Positions 737 to 54,410 of a stretch of DNA of 60,631 bases are shown here, one piece after another. Under the pieces are notes generated by a model. It saw nothing but the letters and a program-made list of their open reading frames with translations, was not told the origin of the DNA and did not search any database. The stretch is taken from positions 1 through 60,631 of the forward strand of contig JAADES010000024.1 of assembly GCA_013153315.1 (NCBI GenBank), written 5' to 3'. Each line of letters opens with the position of its first letter. Position 1 is the stretch's first letter. Position numbers and translations under genes: made by a program. Origin of the DNA: Aquificota bacterium (lineage in GTDB: Bacteria > Aquificota > Aquificia > Aquificales > QOAS01).

Positions 737-812
737 TGGTAGGCGGGACGGGACTCGAACCCGTGACCTCCGGCTTGTAAGGCCAGCGCTCTCCCAACTG
801 AGCTACCCGCCT
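737..812 (-). tRNA. tRNA-Val (anticodon TAC)
   Basis: The reverse complement AGGCGGGTAGCTCAGTTGGGAGAGCGCTGGCCTTACAAGCCGGAGGTCACGGGTTCGAGTCCCGTCCCGCCTACCA folds as a 76-nt cloverleaf. The anticodon loop is CTTACAA and the 3' CCA is encoded. Confidence 0.85.
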
Positions 813-7437: not shown

Positions 7438-8184
7438 ATGGGAAGTTGGAAAAAAGTAACAACCCTATTAGGTCTCTCTTTAGCAACTCTCTCCTTTGCG
7501 GGAGGAATTTATGCCCAAGGAACTAAGTTCGGTGAACTAATAAAAATCTCCTTTAAAGGGGAAGGTAAAGAAAAGGTCTATGAAGGTTATTTGGAGCTAC
7601 CGTCGGGAGAAATTTGGAAATTTAACACCCTTAGCGGGGAAGCCGTTAGAAATTTAACCGCCTTTGTAAGAGTTGACTATGTTCAACCCGAAAAAGAAGA
7701 ACCGGCCTTTAAAGGGGCTACAACACCTTATAACGCAGTAAGGTTTACAGCCGTAAGAAAATTTCACCTAAAAAAGGTTTACACCCTACCTGCAGACCGC
7801 GTTAGGAGGTTTATAGAGGAGGGCTACAATTATTCCCGCGGCTTTAGATGTGGAAGGGTTCAGGATATTTCTATTAAGGAATTTAAAACCGGCTGGTTCA
7901 GTCACAAAAAGGCTATGCAAATCCATTTAGCGTTAACCAACATTTATGGTCTCCCCGCGGTGGACCAAAAAGGTCAACCCATTGTTTGGAAAGCAATAAT
8001 TCCCTCAAACCAAAATAAGGAAGGGTTTTTTGAAACCTTCGAAGAGGGAAGAAGGGAGGATTTATATAACGTTCTTTTAACCCGTATGGGGAAATTCGTA
8101 TGCATCGAATACATTCAAAGGGAACCCAACCCGGAAGACCCTTTCAATTATCGCGTTATAGGAGTTTTTGAAGTTTCCCGATAA
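7438..8184 (+). CDS. hypothetical secreted protein
   Basis: The 248-aa ORF has a signal peptide (LLGLSLATLSFAGGIYAQG). I recognise no family motif. Confidence 0.6.
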   Translation: MGSWKKVTTLLGLSLATLSFAGGIYAQGTKFGELIKISFKGEGKEKVYEGYLELPSGEIWKFNTLSGEAVRNLTAFVRVDYVQPEKEEPAFKGATTPYNAVRFTAVRKFHLKKVYTLPADRVRRFIEEGYNYSRGFRCGRVQDISIKEFKTGWFSHKKAMQIHLALTNIYGLPAVDQKGQPIVWKAIIPSNQNKEGFFETFEEGRREDLYNVLLTRMGKFVCIEYIQREPNPEDPFNYRVIGVFEVSR

Positions 8185-8584: not shown

Positions 8585-10156
8585 TCAGTCGGTGGGTTTT
8601 CCCCAACCGCCCCCTCCGGGTGTTTCTATTCTTATAGTGTCTCCCTTTTTAAGTCTTCCTTGAAACTTACCTCCCACCGCTTGGCCGTTTATTAAGTTTC
8701 TTCCGACCTGGCCGGGTTTTCCTCCAAAAAGTCCGTAGGGAGGTATTCTGCGGCGTTCGGTCAGCAGGGTTACCTCGGCATGGGTCAAAAGTTGGATTTC
8801 CCTAACCAATCCGTCGCCGCCGCGGTGGATACCTTCGCCGCCGCTACCTCGGCGAATGGAATACTCCTTAACCATCATCGGATAGGCAAACTCTAAAGCC
8901 TCCACCGGTGTGTTTAAGGTGTTGGTCATGTGCGAGTGGATGGCACTTTCGCCGTCGCCGCCCGACCAAGCCCCCATTCCGCCGCCCAAAGTTTCGTAGT
9001 AGCTGAAAGCCTCGCCCGTTTGGGGGTTTATTCCGCCTATAGCGAGGTTATTCATGGTTCCCTGACCGGCGGCGGGTATTATTTCGGGGAGTGCCTTTGA
9101 AAGGGCTCCCAATATAACATCAACAATCCTTTGGGAGGTTTCCACATTTCCGGCGGCCACCGCGGCGGGAAATTTTGCATCGACAATCGTTCCCTTTTTG
9201 GTTATTACTTTTATAGCCCTTCCTATACCGGCGTTGGTGGGAATTTCCTCTTTCCCCAATAGGGAACGGAGCACATACAGAACCGCCGATTGGGTAATAG
9301 CTTCCACCGCATTGAAGGGGCCCAAGGTTTGGGGGTCGCTATCGGAAAAATCGAAGGTCATAGAAGAACCTTCCACGGTTATCTTTACCTTTATCTTTAT
9401 ATCGGTGTTGGAAAAACCGTCGTCCTCCAAGAGGTCGGTATATTCGTAAACTCCGTCGGGAATGGTTTCTATAAATTTCCTTGTTAGGGTTTCGGTGTAA
9501 TCCAACAGTGCCGATGTGTATTTTAAAACTTCCTCTTTACCGTAGTTGGAAAGCAATTCTTTCAACCTTTTTATACCTACGTTGTTGGCCCATATTTGGG
9601 CGGCAAAATCGCCCTCCCTTTCGTAGGGGTTTCGAACGTTGTTCAGGAAAAAAGACAATAGTTCTTTGTCCGTTTTTCCGCCTTTTACCAACTTAACGGG
9701 CGGAATTATTATTCCCTCCTGAAATATTGAGGTGGATAGGGGCATCGAGCCTGCGGTCATTCCCCCCACATCGGCGTGGTGGGCGCGGTTGGCCACAAAA
9801 AATAAAAGCTCACCTTCATAGAATACGGGCGAAACCATTGTTATGTCGGGCAGGTGGGTTCCCCCCTTAAAGGGGTCGTTCAGTATAACCACGTCGCCCT
9901 CTTGAAAATCGTCGCCGTAAGTTTCTATGGCACTTTTAACCGAAAGGGGCATCGAACCCAAATGAACAGGTATATGGGCCGCTTGGGCTATTAAATTTCC
10001 CTCACGGTCGAAAATTGCACAGGAAAAATCCCTACGCTCCTTTATGTTGGGGGAAAAGGCCGTCCTTTGAAGGACAACCCCCATTTCTTCCGCTATATGG
10101 GAAAATCGATTGTTAAATACCTCCAAAAGAATAGGCGATATCTTTTTATCCATCAA
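8585..10156 (-). CDS. hydantoinase B/oxoprolinase family protein
   Basis: The 523-aa ORF shows a HyuB-type N-terminus (DPILLEVFNNRF-like, AFSPNIKERRDFSCAIFD) and Gly-rich C-terminal segments. Confidence 0.8.
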   Translation of the reverse strand: MMDKKISPILLEVFNNRFSHIAEEMGVVLQRTAFSPNIKERRDFSCAIFDREGNLIAQAAHIPVHLGSMPLSVKSAIETYGDDFQEGDVVILNDPFKGGTHLPDITMVSPVFYEGELLFFVANRAHHADVGGMTAGSMPLSTSIFQEGIIIPPVKLVKGGKTDKELLSFFLNNVRNPYEREGDFAAQIWANNVGIKRLKELLSNYGKEEVLKYTSALLDYTETLTRKFIETIPDGVYEYTDLLEDDGFSNTDIKIKVKITVEGSSMTFDFSDSDPQTLGPFNAVEAITQSAVLYVLRSLLGKEEIPTNAGIGRAIKVITKKGTIVDAKFPAAVAAGNVETSQRIVDVILGALSKALPEIIPAAGQGTMNNLAIGGINPQTGEAFSYYETLGGGMGAWSGGDGESAIHSHMTNTLNTPVEALEFAYPMMVKEYSIRRGSGGEGIHRGGDGLVREIQLLTHAEVTLLTERRRIPPYGLFGGKPGQVGRNLINGQAVGGKFQGRLKKGDTIRIETPGGGGWGKPTD

Positions 10157-16892: not shown

Positions 16893-19900
<3,008 letters not shown>

Positions 19901-20097
19901 TTTACTTCCTCCTTAGGGATTTCTTCTGTCAAAAAACCGAAAAAGGTAATTATAGCAATTCTTAACCTTTTAAGCTTTCCTCTTAAAACTCTCCTTTTTA
20001 AGTTGTTTTGATATTCAATCTCTACTTGAAATAATTGAATGTCATTTACACAAAAAGGATTTTTGTTTAATTTATTTTCCGCAGGAGGTAAATAAAA

Positions 20098-22371
20098 ATG
20101 GCTATCACAAATGTTACTTTAAATACCACCTCCACAACTTCTACAACCTCCACAACCCAAACTAATCCCGATATCCTTTTCCAAGACCTATTGGATTCCT
20201 TTAATACCGTTACTTTGGATACAGAGCAAACAACATCCACCACGCAAATACAACTACCCAACGATGCTATTAGTCAAGCTATTTTAGAGAGCCCGGTAGA
20301 GGATGCGGAAGATTTATCCGCCCAATGGGAAGTTCAAAATACAGTTAAATTTCCCTTGCTAAATATCACAGGTTATAAAACCGTTACGGTAGTTTTAGAA
20401 GGAACAGACCAAAGTGCAACCTTTAAAATTCCCATCTTGGGTGAGGCGGGAGAAGCGACTCTAAGTTTTGGTAAATTTGAAGTGACCCTTCCCAACGGCG
20501 ACAAAGTTGTTATGGCCGTTCCCGCATCGGCCTCTAAAGAGGTTCCGTCGGCCGACCAAACCGAAGTTAGCGAGACTATCGTAGTAAACGACCTACAGTC
20601 CTTCGAGTATGTAAAAGCATCCCTTCAGATGATTCAACAGGGCGTAGATTCAGCCCTCCAAATTCAAGATGGGGCCCTTCAGGCCATAGAAGGTTATTCC
20701 AACGCTTTAATCCAATATGCCAAAGCTATTGAAGAGCTTAAAGAAAACGCTGAAAACTTACTCCAACAGGCCGACGAATATGAAAATAAAGCGGCTGAAC
20801 TAAGGGACGAGGCGAACCAAAGGGCGGCAGCTTTGTTGGGTGACGATTGGACAATGGACGAACTTGAACAATTGGCTTCTACCGTTCCTAACTACCAAGA
20901 CTACATAGATGAAAACGGCAATTTTGACGAAGCCGCCTTCAATGAAGCGGTATCCCAATATCAAGAGGCCAACGAAATCCTATCTCTATTCCAACAGGCC
21001 GACGCTTACGACCAGACAGTTCAGCAGCTAAGAGACCAAGCGGCCCAACTTCAAGAGCAAGCTAAACAGCTCGCCCAAGAAGCCCAAGACACCTTTGAAA
21101 ACGGTTTAACTTCGGTTATAAACCAATATGTAAGCCAAGCTAACAGCTATCTATCCCAAGCTCAAAGCTACGCTTCCAAAGCTGCAAGCGATAGCGAGCC
21201 TCAAAAATATTTGGACGAAGGTTATGCCCAACTTTACGAAATATTGGGAACAGCCTTTAAAGTTTCCGCCGATAATATGCAGGCGGTTTTAGATACTTAC
21301 AAAACTGTATCGGAAAATCTAAATGAACCCAACGAAGCTAAATTCCCCCTACTTAACGTAATAGGCTACGAAACCGTTACCGTAGTAAACGAAAGCACCG
21401 GACAGCAGCAAACCTTTAAAATTCCTGTATTGGGTGAAACTAAAGAAGAAACTATTACCTTTACTCAAGATACAGTGACTCTGCCCACGGGAGAAACTTT
21501 GAACACTCCCGTAGTTCAAAATGTTTCCACCACAGATTTGAATTACACACCCGTAAATGAATCCAAAACCATAACCGTTAGCGACGATGTTGAATTTGCC
21601 TATGTAACCGCCGCCCTTCAAATGAAACAGCAGGCTGCCGATGTTGTTTTACAACTGCAAGATGCCGCTTTGAGTGTAATTAACGGTTACAGTGATGCCT
21701 TGGATTCCTACAAAGATGCCATAGAGCAGATATCCAACTCCATAGCCCAACTTCAAGACCAAATAGCCCAATACCAAGAATTGGCTACTAACCTCCGCGA
21801 AGAGGCAAACCAAAGGGCGGCCGCATTGCTGGGCGATAACTGGACAATGGACGAACTTGAGCAATTGGCTTCTACCGTTCCTAACTACCAAGATTATGTA
21901 GATGAAAATGGAAACTTCGACGAAGAGGCCTTCAACGAGGCGGTATCCCAATATCAAGAGGCCAACGAAATCCTATCTCTCTTCCAACAGGCCGACGCCT
22001 ACGACCAAGCAGTAGAGCAAATGAACGCTCAAATAGAATCTCTACGCGAGCAGGCCGCCTCCTTAGCAGAGCAAGACCCTCAAACCTTTATAGAGGGCGT
22101 TCAGAACGTTATTAATCAATTCTCCTCGCAGTCTGCTTCTTATGCCTCGCAGGCCGATACTTACCTCAACAAATTGGAAAGCGACACAGAACCCCAAAAA
22201 TATTTAGACGAAGGTTATTATGAGCTATACAACACCCTCAGCTTCGGCTTCGATAGGGCTTCAGATATATTGCAGGCCGTATTAAACGCTTTTAACGCAA
22301 CAATAAATAACGAAACGGGAACCTACATCCCCACTGTGGATATTAATTCCGTTAATATCAACCTCGCTTAG
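20098..22371 (+). CDS. orphan acidic Gln/Ala/Asp/Thr-rich protein with two tandem 331-aa repeats
   Basis: The 757-aa ORF has an SD (GGAGG 8 nt upstream of the ATG) and an uninterrupted frame. It has a Thr/Ser-rich N-terminus, and I found no Cys or His. The internal duplication has a period of exactly 993 nt. Confidence 0.8.
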   Translation: MAITNVTLNTTSTTSTTSTTQTNPDILFQDLLDSFNTVTLDTEQTTSTTQIQLPNDAISQAILESPVEDAEDLSAQWEVQNTVKFPLLNITGYKTVTVVLEGTDQSATFKIPILGEAGEATLSFGKFEVTLPNGDKVVMAVPASASKEVPSADQTEVSETIVVNDLQSFEYVKASLQMIQQGVDSALQIQDGALQAIEGYSNALIQYAKAIEELKENAENLLQQADEYENKAAELRDEANQRAAALLGDDWTMDELEQLASTVPNYQDYIDENGNFDEAAFNEAVSQYQEANEILSLFQQADAYDQTVQQLRDQAAQLQEQAKQLAQEAQDTFENGLTSVINQYVSQANSYLSQAQSYASKAASDSEPQKYLDEGYAQLYEILGTAFKVSADNMQAVLDTYKTVSENLNEPNEAKFPLLNVIGYETVTVVNESTGQQQTFKIPVLGETKEETITFTQDTVTLPTGETLNTPVVQNVSTTDLNYTPVNESKTITVSDDVEFAYVTAALQMKQQAADVVLQLQDAALSVINGYSDALDSYKDAIEQISNSIAQLQDQIAQYQELATNLREEANQRAAALLGDNWTMDELEQLASTVPNYQDYVDENGNFDEEAFNEAVSQYQEANEILSLFQQADAYDQAVEQMNAQIESLREQAASLAEQDPQTFIEGVQNVINQFSSQSASYASQADTYLNKLESDTEPQKYLDEGYYELYNTLSFGFDRASDILQAVLNAFNATINNETGTYIPTVDINSVNINLA
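20347..21339 (+). repeat. tandem intragenic repeat, copy 1 (993 nt)
   Basis: It starts at KFPLLNITGYKTVTVV. It aligns collinearly with copy 2 without indels across the anchor points I checked (20347/21340 and 20809/21802). Confidence 0.85.
21340..22332 (+). repeat. tandem intragenic repeat, copy 2 (993 nt)
   Basis: It starts at KFPLLNVIGYETVTVV. It contains the 69-aa core EANQRAAALLGD(D/N)WTMDELEQLASTVPNYQDY, which is nearly identical to copy 1. Confidence 0.85.
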
Positions 22372-23225
22372 TTCTTATCTTCTTTTTCCTTCAGATGTTT
22401 TTCTATAATCTCTTTGGCCCTAAAAAGCTCTTGTAAATTTAAAACCTTTAAGGCTTCCTTTAATTCTTCTTCCTTGGAAAGGAAGGTTTTCTTTTGAACC
22501 ACCTTGCGGTTTATTAATTTCAACCAAGGTTTCTCCCTAAAGAGGTTAACAATTTCTTCGGCTCCGAAAAAGGGGGTTTCTGGATATAAATAGTCAAAGA
22601 CCGCACACAGGAGGGCATAATCTTCCTCCGTATCGAGGGTAATCCTTATATCGGGAGCCCTTAGGTGGGGTGGGGCTTCTACATTGACCAATTTAAATTT
22701 TTCTCTGTTGGTGGTGTGGATATAGGGGCAAACATGCTCCCTTTCAAAGGGTTGGGCTGCCTTACAAAAGGCCTCTTCCAGAGCCTTGAAGCTAATAACC
22801 TCCACATCCAAACCGTGGGGGTAGGTTCTTTTTAAAGTGTTGGAGGTATAATCGGCCTCCTCCTTAAGGTGGGTAAAAATTACCCTATCCACCACTCGGG
22901 GGTCTATACAGGGACAATCGGAGGTTATTCTAACAATTACGTCCAAATTGTGTTCTTTGGCAGCAAAGTAATACCTAGAAAGGACATCTTTTTCATCCCC
23001 TCGGAAGGTTTTTACCTTTTCCTTTTCCGCAATATGGACTATAGCATCGTCTTGGCTTTTGGTGGTTGTTGCCACAATTATTTCATCCAAAGAAAGGGAA
23101 CGTTTAACCCTTCTAATAACCTGTTGGAGGACGGTAATATCCGAACCGTAAGGAAGCGGTTTTAAAACTTTCTTTGGTAAACGGCTGGAACCGCTACGGG
23201 CTTGGATTATCGCTCCTATCTTCAT
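22368..23225 (-). CDS. cytidylyltransferase family protein (SpsF/NeuA-like, CMP-sugar type)
   Basis: The 285-aa ORF has the N-terminal IIQARSGSSRLPKKVL motif typical of the CTP_transf_3 family. Its stop overlaps the stop of the 757-aa gene by 4 nt, convergently. Confidence 0.7.
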   Translation of the reverse strand: MKIGAIIQARSGSSRLPKKVLKPLPYGSDITVLQQVIRRVKRSLSLDEIIVATTTKSQDDAIVHIAEKEKVKTFRGDEKDVLSRYYFAAKEHNLDVIVRITSDCPCIDPRVVDRVIFTHLKEEADYTSNTLKRTYPHGLDVEVISFKALEEAFCKAAQPFEREHVCPYIHTTNREKFKLVNVEAPPHLRAPDIRITLDTEEDYALLCAVFDYLYPETPFFGAEEIVNLFREKPWLKLINRKVVQKKTFLSKEEELKEALKVLNLQELFRAKEIIEKHLKEKEDKN

Positions 23226-39559: not shown

Positions 39560-40633
39560 CTAACTTCTAACCTCTTTAAAAACCTCCTCCAAAAGGGTTT
39601 GAACCATCTCTTCCTCTTTGACGGTTTTAATAACTACCCCTTTACGAAATAGCAGAGCCCGACCCTTACCGCAGGCAAGTCCTATATCGGCCTCTTTAGC
39701 CTCACCGGGGCCGTTTACCACACAACCCATAATGGCTACTTTTAAAGGTTTTTTAACCCCTTTGAGTTTTTCTTTTACTTCTTTCACCACCTTGGGAAGG
39801 TCTACTTCTATTCTTCCACAGGTTGGACAGGATATTATTTCCACCCCCCTTTTTCTTAAACCGAGGGAGCCCAAAATTTGGTAGGCAACTTCTATTTCCT
39901 CCACAGGGTCACCGGTTAGTGAAACCCTTAGGGTGTCCCCTATGCCCAAATAAAGCAATATCCCTATACCTACGGAGGATTTTATTACTCCACTTTCTCC
40001 AAAACCGGCCTCGGTAATTCCTATATGTAGAGGAATATCCGTCTTTGAGGCGAAAATTTTATTAGCTTCAACGCAGGTTAAAACATCGCTCCCTTTAATG
40101 GAAACTTTAAAGTTTTTAAAGCCCCACTTTTCAAATTTTTCGCTCCACCTTAGGGCACTGTGGGCCAAAGCTTCGGCGGTAGGTCGGCCGTATTTTTCCA
40201 AAAGGTCTTTTTCCAGCGAGCCGCTATTTACCCCTATTCTTATGGCCACATTTTTTAACCTTGCATGCTCTACGATTTCCCTAACCAGACTTTCGTCTCC
40301 TATATTTCCGGGATTTATCCTAATGCCGTGGGCACCTTTATCCATAGCTTCAAGAGCCAAAGAGGCCTTAAAGTGTATATCGGCAATTATTGGTACGGGG
40401 GATTCTTTCACTATGGTTTCTAAGGCTTGGGCATCTTCTTCGGTAGGCACGGCAACCCTTACAATTTCACAACCGGCTTCGTATAGTCTCCTTATTTGGT
40501 TTAAGGTTTCTTTTATGTTCCTTGTTTTGGTCGATGTCATTGATTGAACCACTATTGGGTGGTCGGAACCTATTTTTACCCACCCTACGGAAATTTCTCT
40601 TGTTTTTCTCCTTGGAAGGGAAAGAGTGGTCAT
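39560..40633 (-). CDS. ispG: 4-hydroxy-3-methylbut-2-en-1-yl diphosphate synthase (MEP pathway)
   Basis: The 357-aa ORF has GSDHPIVVQSMT, RINPGNIG and the C-terminal Fe-S cysteines (ISCPTCGR, GCVVNGPGE). Confidence 0.9.
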   Translation of the reverse strand: MTTLSLPRRKTREISVGWVKIGSDHPIVVQSMTSTKTRNIKETLNQIRRLYEAGCEIVRVAVPTEEDAQALETIVKESPVPIIADIHFKASLALEAMDKGAHGIRINPGNIGDESLVREIVEHARLKNVAIRIGVNSGSLEKDLLEKYGRPTAEALAHSALRWSEKFEKWGFKNFKVSIKGSDVLTCVEANKIFASKTDIPLHIGITEAGFGESGVIKSSVGIGILLYLGIGDTLRVSLTGDPVEEIEVAYQILGSLGLRKRGVEIISCPTCGRIEVDLPKVVKEVKEKLKGVKKPLKVAIMGCVVNGPGEAKEADIGLACGKGRALLFRKGVVIKTVKEEEMVQTLLEEVFKEVRS

Positions 40634-50044: not shown

Positions 50045-51613
50045 ATGTTTAATTTAAAAAACCTCTCTAAGGTAGCACTCTTTCCCTTCCTTATTGGGGT
50101 AGGATTTGCCCAGGAAAACCAAGATTTGGAAAAAATAATAAATTTCTTTTCCGTTCAGGGTCAGATAATAGCCAACGCCAAAGATGATATTTATGTTAAC
50201 TCCAAAGGGCTACCCTACTTTAAGGTGGGTTTCCCCGTGGCCATTTACCGAGGCACCTACGTCGAAAACCCCCTAACCCATACAAAAAGTTTTGTAATCA
50301 TCGGCGAAACGGGCAAAGGTTATATTTACCAAAGTTTTCCAACCAACTCTTTGGTAAAGGTAACCCAAAACCAGGGTGTTAAGGTGGGCGATATTGTTAG
50401 GCTCGATGTTGGAAAAATTTGCTTTGAAGGAAGCGACTTTGTATTTCAAAAGCTAAGCCAAACCCTTCCGGTGGTAAAAACAAAAGATATTCACTCCTGC
50501 CGTTGGTCTATAGAGGAAACCAACCAAGGGTTTAAAATCTTGTTAAACCAACAGGAGGTTTATTTTGTTCAGAAATCCTTACCCGGTTATGCCTTTACTT
50601 CCAACCCAGCCTTGGATTTAAAGGATTTAAAAATTTTTGCCAATCCATATTTGTTGGAAACCTACAGAGAGATACCTACCGCCATAGACAGCGGCTATAT
50701 AGTGGATAACAAAATTCCCTTTGTTGCGGTGGGTTTTCCCGAAAAAGTGGTTGTATATCAAAAGGTAGGCGACAGTTTAAAGAAAATTACCGAATTTCCC
50801 ACCCCGGCGGGGATATTGGTCGGTCTTCAGTTGGTTAAAATCAACGGTCAGGGCTACATCATCGGAAATATGTTTACCATCGACGCCCAGCCCGCCGCTT
50901 TCATAGCAAAATTGGTAGGAACAAACGCCGTTATAGTGGCCCAAAATATACCCTACTATTTGGCCGTATTGAACAAAAACGCTCCCGAAAAAACCTTTAT
51001 AGCCCAACGCTTCAGCGAGGGCTCTTTCGGAGATGTTTATTCGGTTCAATTTAATAACGATGTGGCCGTTTTAGGCAAAAAACTGAATATGCCCGCAGGC
51101 TTCCGTGCCGACAGCGCCGTTATGACCGACGATAACACCTTAGCCTTCATCGACAGCAGCGGAACTTTAAGGATTTATAAAGGCGACCTTCAAAAGGGCT
51201 TTAAACATATAGTGGACATCGAAGGGGATTTCGGAAAATCCTACGTTTACATAAATATTCCCGACGTAATGGGCACCAACACTTTAACCAAGTTTTTCTT
51301 TAATCCCCGCCCCCAACCGATAACACTTTTTGGCTTTAAGGGTTTTGTGGTGGTGAAAAATATTCCCGAGCAGCTTGTTCCCATATTGGGTTCTAAGTTT
51401 GTTAAATACAAAAAAGGGAAACTCTATTTTGTAGCCAAAAACAGGGAAGGTTATTATCAAAGCAAACCTATATTGGGTGCGGTTTTTGAAGATGCCGTAG
51501 ACGGCTTTACAATATCCCCCGACGGAACCCCCTATTTAATTACCGGCAAAAGGAACCCTATTCTTTTCCAGACCGAGGGAGATTTATACAAACTACAATT
51601 TAGGTATTACTGA
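50045..51613 (+). CDS. hypothetical secreted protein
   Basis: The 522-aa ORF has a signal peptide (ALFPFLIGVGFAQE) and beta-rich sequence, and ends in an aromatic C-terminus (QFRYY). I recognise no family. Confidence 0.6.
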   Translation: MFNLKNLSKVALFPFLIGVGFAQENQDLEKIINFFSVQGQIIANAKDDIYVNSKGLPYFKVGFPVAIYRGTYVENPLTHTKSFVIIGETGKGYIYQSFPTNSLVKVTQNQGVKVGDIVRLDVGKICFEGSDFVFQKLSQTLPVVKTKDIHSCRWSIEETNQGFKILLNQQEVYFVQKSLPGYAFTSNPALDLKDLKIFANPYLLETYREIPTAIDSGYIVDNKIPFVAVGFPEKVVVYQKVGDSLKKITEFPTPAGILVGLQLVKINGQGYIIGNMFTIDAQPAAFIAKLVGTNAVIVAQNIPYYLAVLNKNAPEKTFIAQRFSEGSFGDVYSVQFNNDVAVLGKKLNMPAGFRADSAVMTDDNTLAFIDSSGTLRIYKGDLQKGFKHIVDIEGDFGKSYVYINIPDVMGTNTLTKFFFNPRPQPITLFGFKGFVVVKNIPEQLVPILGSKFVKYKKGKLYFVAKNREGYYQSKPILGAVFEDAVDGFTISPDGTPYLITGKRNPILFQTEGDLYKLQFRYY

Positions 51614-52492: not shown

Positions 52493-53257
52493 TCAAACAG
52501 TAAAAGAACCTGTTTTAGCCGCACCAAGTTTCTTTTCTAAAGCTAAACTTTTTATGTTTAATTTTTTGGCTAAATTATCCGCCACGTGTTGCTCCCATGT
52601 TAAAACAAAAACCCTTTGGAGAGCATTTTTATTTAATACTTTTATTGTTTTCAAAGGAACTTCTACCAGCCGTTGGTCGTTGGAGTAAATAGAAACAAAT
52701 TTGCCGTTTCCTATTAAAAAGGATACCAATCCCGAGAAGGTTAAATCATCATCCCTCTCAATTTTTTGCCCCTTGTGGGTTTGTTTTCTTTTTAGAATAG
52801 TTTTAACTACCTGTATGGAATTTATATTTAAACCGGCCTCTTTGACTGCTTTAGATAGAGCTTGTTGAACTTTATTCCAGAAGCTCTCGGTATATATGTA
52901 GTTGGAGAATATTTTCTTTTCTAAGTCTTCCTTCTCTTTATTTAATTGATTTATTGAGTTTTCCAATTTTTTCTTTTTAAAAATGTTAAGAGGGGAAACT
53001 TTTTCTTTTTCTTCCACCAACCGAAGGTATTCCTTTTTAATTTTTTCCAATTGTCTTTCCAAACTTAAAATATTTTCATCTACACCACCGATAATGAAAA
53101 TATTGTCAACATATTTTTGTGTTTCTTTGTAGGTTAAACGGCATAGGTTGACAACATATTTAGCTACCGAATAGGGGGTATTTTTTGAAAAATTCTTAAT
53201 TCGGTAGGTTAAATTTAAGCCATCCACTACAAGAAACCCGTTTCCATGGAGACCCAT
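52493..53257 (-). CDS. hypothetical protein, possible split NYN/LabA-like nuclease fold with a coiled-coil insert
   Basis: The 254-aa ORF has an N-terminal FLVVDGLNL and distal ERDDDL and SIYSNDQ acidic clusters that loosely resemble NYN catalytic segments. A Lys/Glu-rich coiled-coil segment of roughly 60-70 aa lies in the middle. Confidence 0.3.
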   Translation of the reverse strand: MGLHGNGFLVVDGLNLTYRIKNFSKNTPYSVAKYVVNLCRLTYKETQKYVDNIFIIGGVDENILSLERQLEKIKKEYLRLVEEKEKVSPLNIFKKKKLENSINQLNKEKEDLEKKIFSNYIYTESFWNKVQQALSKAVKEAGLNINSIQVVKTILKRKQTHKGQKIERDDDLTFSGLVSFLIGNGKFVSIYSNDQRLVEVPLKTIKVLNKNALQRVFVLTWEQHVADNLAKKLNIKSLALEKKLGAAKTGSFTV

Positions 53258-53285: not shown

Positions 53286-54410
53286 CTAGTTTGTGTTTAT
53301 ATAAACCACCCTTATGGGCCAGTTGTGTAAAGCTATTTCCCTCAGACGGAACTGTCCCGCCACAAGGATACCCATCTGAGGGGACAAATTCCCTTTAACA
53401 CAGGCGAGGTTTTTAGAAATTGCCCCAACCTTAACAGGAATAAGTTTTTTATCGGTATTTACTACGAAAGTTCCCGCATCTAAATACAAAACCGCACCGA
53501 AGGGAACTATAAAACCTTTGCATTCCTTTGTGGGGAGAGAAACATTAATATAGCTGTCGTCCGGTAGGGGTAATTTTTTTGTTAGGATTTCTACCACCTT
53601 AAGGTTTTGGTTGGTCGAAGGTAAAACCCTATTTACGGTAAGTTTGTATTCTTTCCCTCCAAGGGTAATAAAGCCTTCCTTTCCCACCGAGGTCTGGAGG
53701 GGAACATTTACCAAAATCCTGTAAAGGTCGGTCTTTGCTATTTCCATTAGGGGTTTTCCTGCTCCGACAAAGTCACCTTCCCTAACAAGGAGTTTTCTAA
53801 CAACTCCGTCGTAGGGAGCCCTTATGTAAGTGTAAACTTCCAAGTTGTGTTTTAAATCCTTTAGCTGGGCTTGGAGAGCTTTAAGGTTGCTTAAAGCCGC
53901 CTCATATTGGGCTTTGGTTTGCATATATTTGGTTTTGGAAAGTTGAAATTGCTCTTTGGAAATACCTCCCGTTTCGAAAAGCTTTTTATCCCTTTCGAAT
54001 ATCGCCTTTTGGGTTTCGAGGGCTACCTGCAAGGCTTGGATTTGGGCTTTTTGTGCCTCTAATTTGGCTTCGGTCGCCTCTATTTGGCTTTTTATATCGG
54101 TGGGGTCGATTACCGCCAATATTTGACCTTTTTTAAAGGTATCCCCTTCGGAAACATTTAGCTTTACTACCGCCCCGTTGGTTTTTGTTGATAAAAACCC
54201 TTTGGTGTAGGGTTCATAAAACCCTTGGAAGGTAGTGTATTCTTTCAAAATACCTTCCTTAGGGTGAACGGCTTCCACCGTGTAGGGCAACCTTTGGGGG
54301 GTGGGTAATTTTTGGTATTCCAACTTCCGTTGTTTTAATTTGTAAAATCCGAACCCGAAGAAGACAACCAAAATTAAAAGAACCACCAAAATATAGCGTT
54401 TGTTGGACAT
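53286..54410 (-). CDS. efflux transporter periplasmic adaptor subunit (HlyD/MFP family)
   Basis: The 374-aa ORF has an N-terminal TM anchor and lipoyl-like halves (VKLNVSEGDTFKKGQILAVID; IRAPYDGVV). These flank a long alpha-hairpin (AKLEAQKAQIQALQ...). Confidence 0.8.
   Translation of the reverse strand: MSNKRYILVVLLILVVFFGFGFYKLKQRKLEYQKLPTPQRLPYTVEAVHPKEGILKEYTTFQGFYEPYTKGFLSTKTNGAVVKLNVSEGDTFKKGQILAVIDPTDIKSQIEATEAKLEAQKAQIQALQVALETQKAIFERDKKLFETGGISKEQFQLSKTKYMQTKAQYEAALSNLKALQAQLKDLKHNLEVYTYIRAPYDGVVRKLLVREGDFVGAGKPLMEIAKTDLYRILVNVPLQTSVGKEGFITLGGKEYKLTVNRVLPSTNQNLKVVEILTKKLPLPDDSYINVSLPTKECKGFIVPFGAVLYLDAGTFVVNTDKKLIPVKVGAISKNLACVKGNLSPQMGILVAGQFRLREIALHNWPIRVVYINTN

Follow-up and report, generated by a model that had tools for sequence, protein, structure and literature searches.

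The open reading frame (ORF) at positions 20098-22371 (forward strand, stop codon included) of a 60,631-nt stretch of Aquificota DNA (contig JAADES010000024.1, positions 1 to 60,631; referred to as the window) is complete, runs uninterrupted from an ATG start, and encodes a 757-aa protein that contains two copies of one module. Based on sequence comparison and structure prediction, both copies almost certainly belong to an undescribed protein family, in which a beta-hairpin part is followed by a helical hairpin and, at the end of the chain, by a VDIxxVNxxI motif. In the relatives the module is found behind adhesin- or lectin-type heads, and it is tentatively read here as a stalk or anchor of surface proteins that would be exported independently of Sec.

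A Shine-Dalgarno sequence (AGGAGG, 20083-20088, forward strand) was read from the DNA 9 nt 5' of the ATG, and a consensus scan gave a sigma-70-like promoter candidate (20008-20035, forward strand; TTGATA, 16 nt, TG-extended AATAAT) approximately 63 nt upstream of the ATG, which agrees at 10 of 12 positions and is a pattern match only. A sequence-only reading of the window, made before this analysis, had described a real, uninterrupted gene with a strong Shine-Dalgarno sequence, and the AGGAGG, the ATG, and a ratio of nonsynonymous to synonymous divergence (dN/dS) of 0.12 from the ortholog described below all support that description. The same reading had reported an odd composition, without Cys or His, rich in Gln and low in Lys and Arg, and the residue counts agree (C 0, H 0, K 23 (3.0%), R 7 (0.9%); Q 10.4%, A 11.1%, T 8.7%, S 7.1%, N 7.1%, D 7.0%, E 9.0%). 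The protein is an outlier among the 50 window ORFs of at least 150 aa, with the highest Gln content and the lowest sum of Lys and Arg (4.0%, compared to 10-19% in most others, the soluble proteins, and 5.6-7.7% in membrane proteins), and its net charge is -91, about -40 per module. Neither a transmembrane segment nor a signal peptide was found in the window protein, again as the earlier reading had it, the top 19-aa Kyte-Doolittle mean being 0.95, compared to 2.3-2.6 for the membrane and signal segments of its neighbours.

Repeats, predicted fold and family

The two repeats are collinear and 331 aa long, with repeat 1 (aa 84-414, 20347-21339, forward strand) opening with KFPLLNITGY at 20347 and repeat 2 (aa 415-745, 21340-22332, forward strand) with KFPLLNVIGY at 21340, reproducing exactly the coordinates and the period of 993 nt given by the sequence-only reading. 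Within module 1 the beta-hairpin part (20347-20586) is followed by three helices, and module 2 has the same topology. Aligned without gaps, the copies are identical at 184 of 331 residues (55.6%) and 59% identical at the nucleotide level, far beyond chance, and this nucleotide identity is uneven, being approximately 50% over most of the repeat, 87% over repeat residues 151-223, and 97-100% in sub-blocks. A block at the hairpin tip (ELRDEANQRAAALLGDDWTMDEL...NGNFDEAAFNEAVSQYQEANEILSLFQQADAYDQ in module 1, 20797-21015; 21790-22008 in module 2; both forward strand) is, by repeat comparison and by the family alignment A2, the most conserved part of the family, being kept across most of A2 and largely missing or diverged in P0010 and P0012, which are its two most divergent members; its motif, ALLGxxWTMxxL...EYxEAxxIxxLFxxAD, is present in both window repeats. 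The C-terminal tail (TVDINSVNINLA, 22333-22368, forward strand) fits the family-wide terminal motif VDIxxVNxxI and stands at the end of the protein, the internal module 1 having no tail, and its alternating hydrophobic residues suggest a beta strand. Descent of the tail from a copy of the module's first strand (YIPTVDI compared by eye with KFPLLNV) was considered and dropped, since the likeness is weak and absent in the relatives.

All structure predictions were monomer models. One repeat, predicted with AlphaFold2 (AF2) from a four-sequence repeat alignment (A1), gave a predicted local distance difference test score (pLDDT) of 93.7 and a predicted template modelling (TM) score of 0.80, with strands at repeat residues 2-17, 23-47, 53-65 and 73-80, and helices at 83-164 (82 residues), 195-281 (87 residues, the return helix) and 286-323 (38 residues). 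These approximately 80 aa of strands and 250 aa of helix match the beta module and helical, heptad-like part sketched from the sequence, and the helices carry a hydrophobic periodicity of 3.5-3.67 residues. The two long helices form an antiparallel hairpin, modelled as a rod of roughly 13 nm, joined by a small tip (repeat residues 165-194) that is hydrophilic and has no hydrophobic tongue; the most hydrophobic 19-aa stretch of the protein falls in the first beta strand and not at the tip. The full-length model (pLDDT 72.5) repeats the topology twice, with residues 1-76 and 738-757 disordered in the monomer (pLDDT <50), and we read the window protein as an acidic rod of roughly 80 kDa, with two modules and no head. 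The N-terminal 83 aa (20098-20346, forward strand) are predicted to be disordered in AF2 and are hypervariable in the ortholog alignment. The Thr/Ser run noted there by the sequence-only reading is present as TSTTSTTSTT, corresponding to a 9-nt tandem repeat (20128-20157, Tandem Repeats Finder) that encodes (TST)3, and falls within the predicted disorder, but is not conserved in the 86%-identical ortholog.

Using the protein, its modules and the relatives as queries, no match at curated thresholds was obtained in Pfam, NCBIfam, PHROGs or PADLOC, where only generic coiled-coil noise appeared; sequence searches of the PDB with the protein and two family profiles returned no match and no flagellar chain, and Foldseek searches with the repeat model (PDB and BFVD) and the full-length model (PDB) returned nothing at E <0.001, with TM scores of at most 0.37. 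The profile and structure searches thus gave no confident match to a known family, and the earlier statement that the protein has no characterised family stands. Entries listed by Foldseek at noise level were SH3BP5, SMC arms, designed bundles, the toxins SmhB, AhlB and ClyA, and, from BFVD, tail-fibre and chaperone models. Such entries, together with the long helical bundles and the beta element, could be taken for an alpha-helical pore-forming toxin (ClyA/Hbl/Smh/Ahl) or a phage tail-fibre or mobile-element protein, but these matches (E 0.2-0.5, with 0.24-0.46 for the toxins; TM 0.15-0.25) are noise, the hydrophilic tip lacks the hydrophobic tongue, no relatives were found on viral contigs in IMG/VR, PHROG matches were at E 6e-4 or weaker and without a matched stretch, and the gene has native codon usage in a syntenic chromosomal housekeeping context, making an identity of this kind hardly credible.

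The label of orphan given by the sequence-only reading did not survive. A profile of four repeat copies, searched against 1.84 billion protein representatives, returned 12 matches, 9 of which are convincing relatives (E 1e-33 to 4e-5), collinear with the window repeat through the beta part, helices, tip and tail, and a hidden Markov model of the family built from A2 matched both halves of the window ORF (domain E 1e-23 to 1e-104). Word-indexed searching with the single window protein returned only the 86%-identical ortholog, and with A2 returned nothing, coiled-coil words having probably flooded the candidates. All relatives come from hydrothermal-vent-type metagenomes, one of them in a Desulfurobacteriaceae metagenome-assembled genome (MAG; GTDB scan with alignment A3), and the window PriA is closest to Aquificota genomes (45-52% identity); where it can be judged, from this PriA and this MAG, the lineage of the family is Aquificota. 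A GyrB scan, dominated by a universal motif, returned only unrelated phyla at approximately 50% identity, a FliG scan meant to place L015 returned nothing, and the lineage of the window is accordingly taken from PriA. A pattern scan of GTDB species representatives did not find the window protein, and the gene does not have the distribution of an ordinary conserved core gene of the clade.

Heads, promoters and neighbourhoods of the relatives

Across the family the module measures approximately 340-380 aa, its beta-hairpins are amphipathic and very long, and VDIxxVNxxI ends every relative that is complete at its C-terminus. The relatives carry a single, C-terminal module, preceded by heads of several kinds, namely an integrin-type vWA domain inserted in DUF4114, DUF4114 alone, a LamG-like domain, or an Ig-like domain (Pfam names Integrin_beta/VWA_4, DUF4114 and Laminin_G_3 tail), and the window protein has two modules and no head. 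No signal peptide was found in any family member. The vWA type of the relatives' heads occurs elsewhere fused to RTX (PF00362+PF00353) or TSP3 repeats, and is thus found in extracellular proteins. One subtype (P0010/P0025) is acidic and has a short Ig-like N-domain; its gene call of 360 aa is probably short, since the frame runs approximately 85 aa further upstream (contig L099, 4522-4767) through an Ig-like domain with homology to the domain that precedes the module in P0009, and in four contigs (L099, L017, L018, L100) the gene lies directly after lspA, in a housekeeping context.

Most relatives are Lys-rich, with a net charge of +13 to +18 per module, and at their Lys and Arg columns Gln is the commonest residue in the window modules (31 of 98 aligned cells). 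On this alignment, a Lys-rich coiled coil is neutralised in the window protein in a lineage-specific manner, mostly to Gln, and the odd composition of the protein arises from this replacement. Gln is normally scarce in thermophiles, and the recoding of a thermophile coiled coil from Lys to Gln is an unexplained oddity.

Adjacent family genes with identical C-terminal modules occur in contigs L005/L008 and L012, and adjacent members are also found in L007 and L010. The L008 pair, a DUF4114-type member followed by a vWA-type member, is succeeded within a few kb by two small genes (ORF-B, then ORF-A), genes for proteins of 398 and 701 aa, a flagellin gene, and a FliD-like ORF. In L012, FliI and FlgD are encoded 6-8 kb upstream of two members with identical modules, which are followed by ORF-A. 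In the L015 contig (27% GC) a member heads a closely spaced series of genes on one strand, in which it is followed by ORF-A, ORF-B, a gene for an HD-domain protein, and those for FliG, FliH and FlgE; beyond these, on the opposite strand, lie genes for FlgI and for proteins homologous to the 701- and 398-aa ones. The small conserved ORFs (L008 4678-5371; L012 13989-14357; L015 2303-3067) thus occur downstream of family genes in three lineages. ORF-A encodes an acidic product of 122-139 aa with the pattern PDxxG...ExE...ETC, and ORF-B a helical one of 111-118 aa; neither has a match in Pfam, NCBIfam, PHROG or PADLOC, and they could be chaperones or partners. The pair of approximately 400- and 700-aa proteins (L008 5381-8652; L015 9366-12236, reverse strand) also travels with family and flagellar genes, at 43% and 61% identity between the 39%-GC and 27%-GC contigs. 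The 701-aa protein has weak, sub-threshold similarity to Epimerase_2/GT4 (epimerase/glycosyltransferase), and the larger protein of the pair may be a glycosyltransferase for flagellin or adhesins.

The motif TTAAY-N16-17-CGATAT occurs once each in L005 (886-912), L012 (9076-9103) and L101 (1086-1112), in each case 25-45 nt ahead of the first family gene, and a further single copy lies upstream of the L008 flagellin gene (8984-9010), with a background expectation of 0.10 per 60 kb and only 3 matches in approximately 80 unrelated loci. CGATwt is the -10 element recognised by sigma-28 (PMC4626219). Because of these sigma-28-type motifs and the flagellar neighbourhoods, the head-bearing relatives very probably belong to a late flagellar regulon, and the motif could serve for mapping this regulon in vent lineages. 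Common origin of L012 and the window from one genome was considered on the basis of a tetranucleotide correlation of r = 0.96 and set aside, as an Aquificota MAG with a 48%-identical PriA gives 0.95.

Proximity to flagellar genes, the sigma-28-type promoters, a composition and disordered termini resembling those of axial proteins, and one Flagellin_C match below threshold (P0007, E 0.0013, scoring 19.4 bits where 23 are required) could together indicate a diverged axial protein of the flagellum, of flagellin, FliD, FlgK or FlgL type, or a structural part of the filament itself. That match is, however, limited to 1 of 12 modules, and no member reaches the threshold for Flagellin_N/C, FliD_N/C or Flg_bb_rod; the window protein does not match these or Flg_bbr_C even at E up to 1, with the L008 flagellin, as a positive control, matching both the Flagellin_N and Flagellin_C Pfam domains. 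PDB profile searches and Foldseek revealed no flagellar protein, the order of beta part, helical hairpin, helix and tail is unlike the plan of N-helix, insert and C-helix, and L008 has a normal flagellin and a FliD-like protein besides its two family members, which also rules out the family as a replacement of FliD. An axial identity is thus very unlikely, and the doubt of the sequence-only reading about a fit to the flagellin or hook-associated consensus was well placed, no homology to flagellin, FlgK, FlgL or FliD having been found.

The window locus and its variation between strains

The neighbours of the target gene in the window are the housekeeping genes dnaG, priA, gyrB, lspA and yebC. 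Directly downstream, on the reverse strand, a CTP_transf_3 cytidylyltransferase gene (22368-23225; Pfam E 2.6e-29, below all NCBIfam equivalog cut-offs) is convergent with the target, with a 4-nt overlap at the target's stop codon (22368-22371). Enzymes of this family (CMP-Kdo / CMP-nonulosonate synthetases) activate nonulosonic or Kdo-type sugars, and the gene might be related to glycosylation of the Thr/Ser-rich N-terminus. Upstream, and divergent from the target at a distance of 197 bp, a 163-aa Lys/Glu-rich helical ORF (19409-19900, reverse strand) has no family match.

A syntenic ortholog (P0002, 738 aa, 86% identical) was found on contig L001, which has the order BamA, DnaG, PriA, GyrB, 163-aa ORF, target, CTP_transf_3 cytidylyltransferase, LspA and YebC; in distant Aquificota this order is not conserved. 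Between the two strains the target has a dS of 0.63 and a dN of 0.074 (dN/dS 0.12), compared to a dS of 0.02-0.24 and a dN of at most 0.025 for the flanking genes, so that the dS of the target is 3-30 times theirs; the protein encoded by the neighbouring 163-aa ORF is 100% identical in the two strains. The divergence is uneven within the gene, with module 1 and the N-terminus near saturation (pS 0.5-0.77) and module 2 much closer, corresponding to amino acid identities of 83% for module 1 and 94% for module 2. The first approximately 40 residues, other than M[AT]ITN[VI], and the region 5' of the start are not conserved between the strains, codons 19-68 have a pN of 0.33, and the proteins align well from about residue 41. 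Sub-blocks of the module 1 tip block are 97-100% identical to the tip block of their own module 2, and 70-87% identical to the orthologous module 1 block, which indicates patchy intragenic gene conversion between the tip blocks. Likewise, the comparison indicates that part of the target was replaced by recombination with a divergent allele, under purifying selection given the dN/dS of 0.12 between the two alleles. The target GC3 (0.44) and synonymous codon choice (z = -0.82) are typical for the window and do not support recent acquisition from a foreign genome; with a syntenic locus in the sister strain, horizontal acquisition as proposed by the sequence-only reading gives way to allele recombination. 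In other samples, contigs L013 (Logan SRR7968109_6155) and L014 (ENA k141_157460) encode a product identical to the window GcpE (39560-40633), and L013, which runs approximately 7.7 kb past the fetched range, should end inside the second repeat of the target; such an end would be consistent with assemblies that break at the internal repeat or at sites of strain variation.

The position of the gene beside dnaG, priA and gyrB, the lack of a signal peptide or transmembrane segment, and the net charge of -91 would suit a cytoplasmic coiled-coil scaffold or nucleic-acid-related protein (SMC-like or DUF342-type), or an acidic DNA mimic acting on the neighbouring replication and topology proteins, as would weak, sub-threshold coiled-coil matches to SMC, Rad50, JetC and LmuB and the IMG label 'uncharacterized coiled-coil DUF342 family protein' on cluster members. 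This label is, however, automated and not reproduced by Pfam, where FapA (DUF342) was absent from the matches of protein and modules at E up to 1, and SMC/Rad50/JetC scores were 20-32 bits against cut-offs of 300-1087 (26 against 567 bits for SMC), confined to coiled-coil stretches, with no ATPase head or other catalytic domain. The vWA, DUF4114 and LamG heads of the relatives are typically extracellular, the positive charge of the relatives is ill-suited to a conserved role as DNA mimic, and high allele divergence beside near-identical neighbours is unusual for a housekeeping scaffold. An intracellular role of this type is considered unlikely.

Elsewhere in the window, three ORFs had no Pfam match at E up to 1e-5, encoding 522 aa (50045-51613, forward strand; beginning with the signal-peptide-like MFNLKNLSKVALFPFLIGVGFAQ), 254 aa (52493-53257, reverse strand; adjoining an HlyD-family gene at 53286-54410) and 248 aa (7438-8184, forward strand). 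Precomputed Pfam results on identical contigs assign a Translin-family protein (PF01997; 44745-45356, reverse strand), a family uncommon in bacteria, and a metallo-beta-lactamase fold of the anti-Pycsar Apyc1 family (PF23023; 34921-35679, reverse strand). Two adjacent tRNA genes (645-719 and 740-812, reverse strand) are the sole Rfam matches in the window.

Proposed role and comparison with known systems

From the position of a constant C-terminal module behind variable adhesin or lectin heads, we infer a stalk, anchor or oligomerisation role, and the module is most plausibly, if tentatively, a surface stalk or anchor exported without Sec. As a rod-like device it would keep variable binding heads at a distance from a conserved site of attachment, located either on the cell surface or on a structure associated with the flagellum, with the conserved hairpin tip and tail possibly serving as attachment or assembly elements. 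Export would be Sec-independent; the promoters and neighbourhoods of the head-bearing relatives make the flagellar type III apparatus their foremost candidate route, type I secretion being the alternative. The window protein may correspond to a single-chain two-module unit, a structural surface fibre, spacer or scaffold and not an adhesin, because pairs of adjacent genes with identical modules are frequent among its relatives. Strain-level allele replacement and the lack of Cys and of a Sec signal agree with the protein being structural, exposed and non-classically exported, and an extracellular location of the window protein would be in keeping with the relatives' heads. A flagellar link of the window gene itself would have homology of the module as its single line of evidence. 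Of the ideas in the sequence-only reading, that of a secreted protein or surface fibre draws the best support from the heads, promoters and neighbours of the relatives.

Several observations weigh against this role. The sigma-28-type motif TTAAY-N16-17-CGATAT is absent from the whole window, searches upstream of the window gene for sigma-28 and sigma-54 motifs gave none, and the 60-kb window holds no flagellar genes and no homologs of ORF-A, ORF-B or the 398- and 701-aa proteins; the window protein also has no head domain. These missing features are those of the head-bearing subgroup and not of the module itself. No family member has a signal peptide, no secretion genes adjoin the window gene, Foldseek supplied no structural analog, and export and surface location are presumptive throughout the family. 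The relatives' modules are mostly at +13 to +18 and the window modules at about -40, and the partners or function of the window protein may differ accordingly. The number of family members is very small, and all are drawn from a few related metagenomes.

A more specific form of the stalk or anchor reading, possible but doubtful, is that the family makes flagellum-coupled modular adhesin fibres of vent thermophiles, under sigma-28 control, built around a novel rod module, and exported Sec-free, the flagellar type III apparatus being the probable route. Attachment would then be by the hairpin tip and assembly by the C-terminal strand, and the window protein would be a headless double-rod shaft or base, or an independent fibre whose alleles are exchanged under diversifying pressure.

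An extracellular structural role is shared with a different explanation, that of a type I-secreted S-layer-like or fibrillar protein, exported C-terminus-first through ABC, membrane fusion protein (MFP) and TolC components with the conserved C-terminus as secretion signal. A Cys-free, acidic, Ser/Thr/Ala/Asn/Gln-rich protein without N-terminal signal would suit this route, as would the conserved motif at the extreme C-terminus (Asp followed by hydrophobic residues), the fusion elsewhere of the relatives' vWA type to RTX repeats, and a strain-level hypervariability typical of S-layer genes. Set against this, Pfam found no RTX (GGxGxD) repeats and no HemolysinCabind match in the window protein, no ABC exporter or TolC gene adjoins any family locus, the sole HlyD-family gene of the window is 31 kb from the target and has no ABC partner alongside, the Lys-rich, basic character of most relatives is unusual among type I substrates, and the relatives' sigma-28-type promoters and flagellar neighbourhoods point elsewhere. 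Type I export of this kind is regarded as improbable.

Whatever its function, the family combines a confidently modelled fold without a PDB or BFVD match with a count of approximately ten sequence clusters in 1.84 billion representatives, among the rarest detectable families, and the window gene clearly exemplifies local allele replacement, together with gene conversion within the gene, amid an otherwise near-identical region. The fold and family are undescribed and extremely rare. If the stalk or anchor reading is true, it would bear on cell attachment to mineral surfaces or to other cells, and non-flagellar cargoes of the flagellar programme would extend beyond Campylobacter-type pathogens to deep-branching vent thermophiles.

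A parallel in design is provided by PilY1.1 and PilY1.3 of Myxococcus xanthus, in which DUF4114 (Ca-dependent lectin-type) and vWA form alternative adhesive N-domains on a constant C-domain (PMC9109919). Like the relatives, these pilus-tip adhesins combine a conserved C-terminal assembly or anchor domain with interchangeable DUF4114 or vWA N-domains, but there is no relation in sequence or fold, the PilY1 C-domain being a beta-propeller and the protein carrying a Sec signal, whereas the constant part of the present family is a beta-hairpin and helical-hairpin rod without signal peptide, its relatives' neighbourhood is flagellar and not that of a pilus, and the window protein is headless. A regulatory parallel is found in the sigma-28-dependent non-flagellar proteins co-expressed with the Campylobacter flagellum (Feds, FlaC and CiaI, as cited in PMC4626219). 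The head-bearing relatives resemble these in having a CGATwt-type -10 element at flagellin-like spacing, no signal peptide, and flagellar neighbours, but share no homology with them, and the window gene differs further by its sigma-70-like candidate and the lack of flagellar neighbours.

With flagellin, FliD, FlgK and FlgL, the window protein shares a Cys-free, acidic, Gln/Asn/Ser/Thr/Ala-rich composition, termini disordered in the monomer, and long helices combined with beta domains; the terminal helical domains are absent, however, the order of elements is different, and canonical flagellin and FliD coexist with the family in L008. The S-layer proteins RsaA and SapA and the RTX adhesin LapA similarly have no N-terminal signal and no Cys, are acidic, and keep C-terminal information, some type I surface proteins likewise have vWA heads, and S-layer genes are hypervariable between strains, but in the present family RTX repeats and linked ABC/MFP/TolC genes are absent, and the majority of relatives are basic. 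Rod-like coiled-coil surface spacers are known in tetrabrachion of Staphylothermus, Omp-alpha of Thermotoga, and the stalks of trimeric autotransporters, all of which bear signal peptides and membrane or SLH anchors. These elements are absent here, and Pfam and Foldseek give no homology to such stalks. A conserved anchor that presents exchangeable adhesive heads, the role proposed here, is thus an already known design, and, if true, the module would provide a new structural way of presenting such heads, as is done by the PilY1 C-domain, the FimH pilin domain and autotransporter stalks, differing from these by its fold, the absent Sec signal and flagellar co-regulation.

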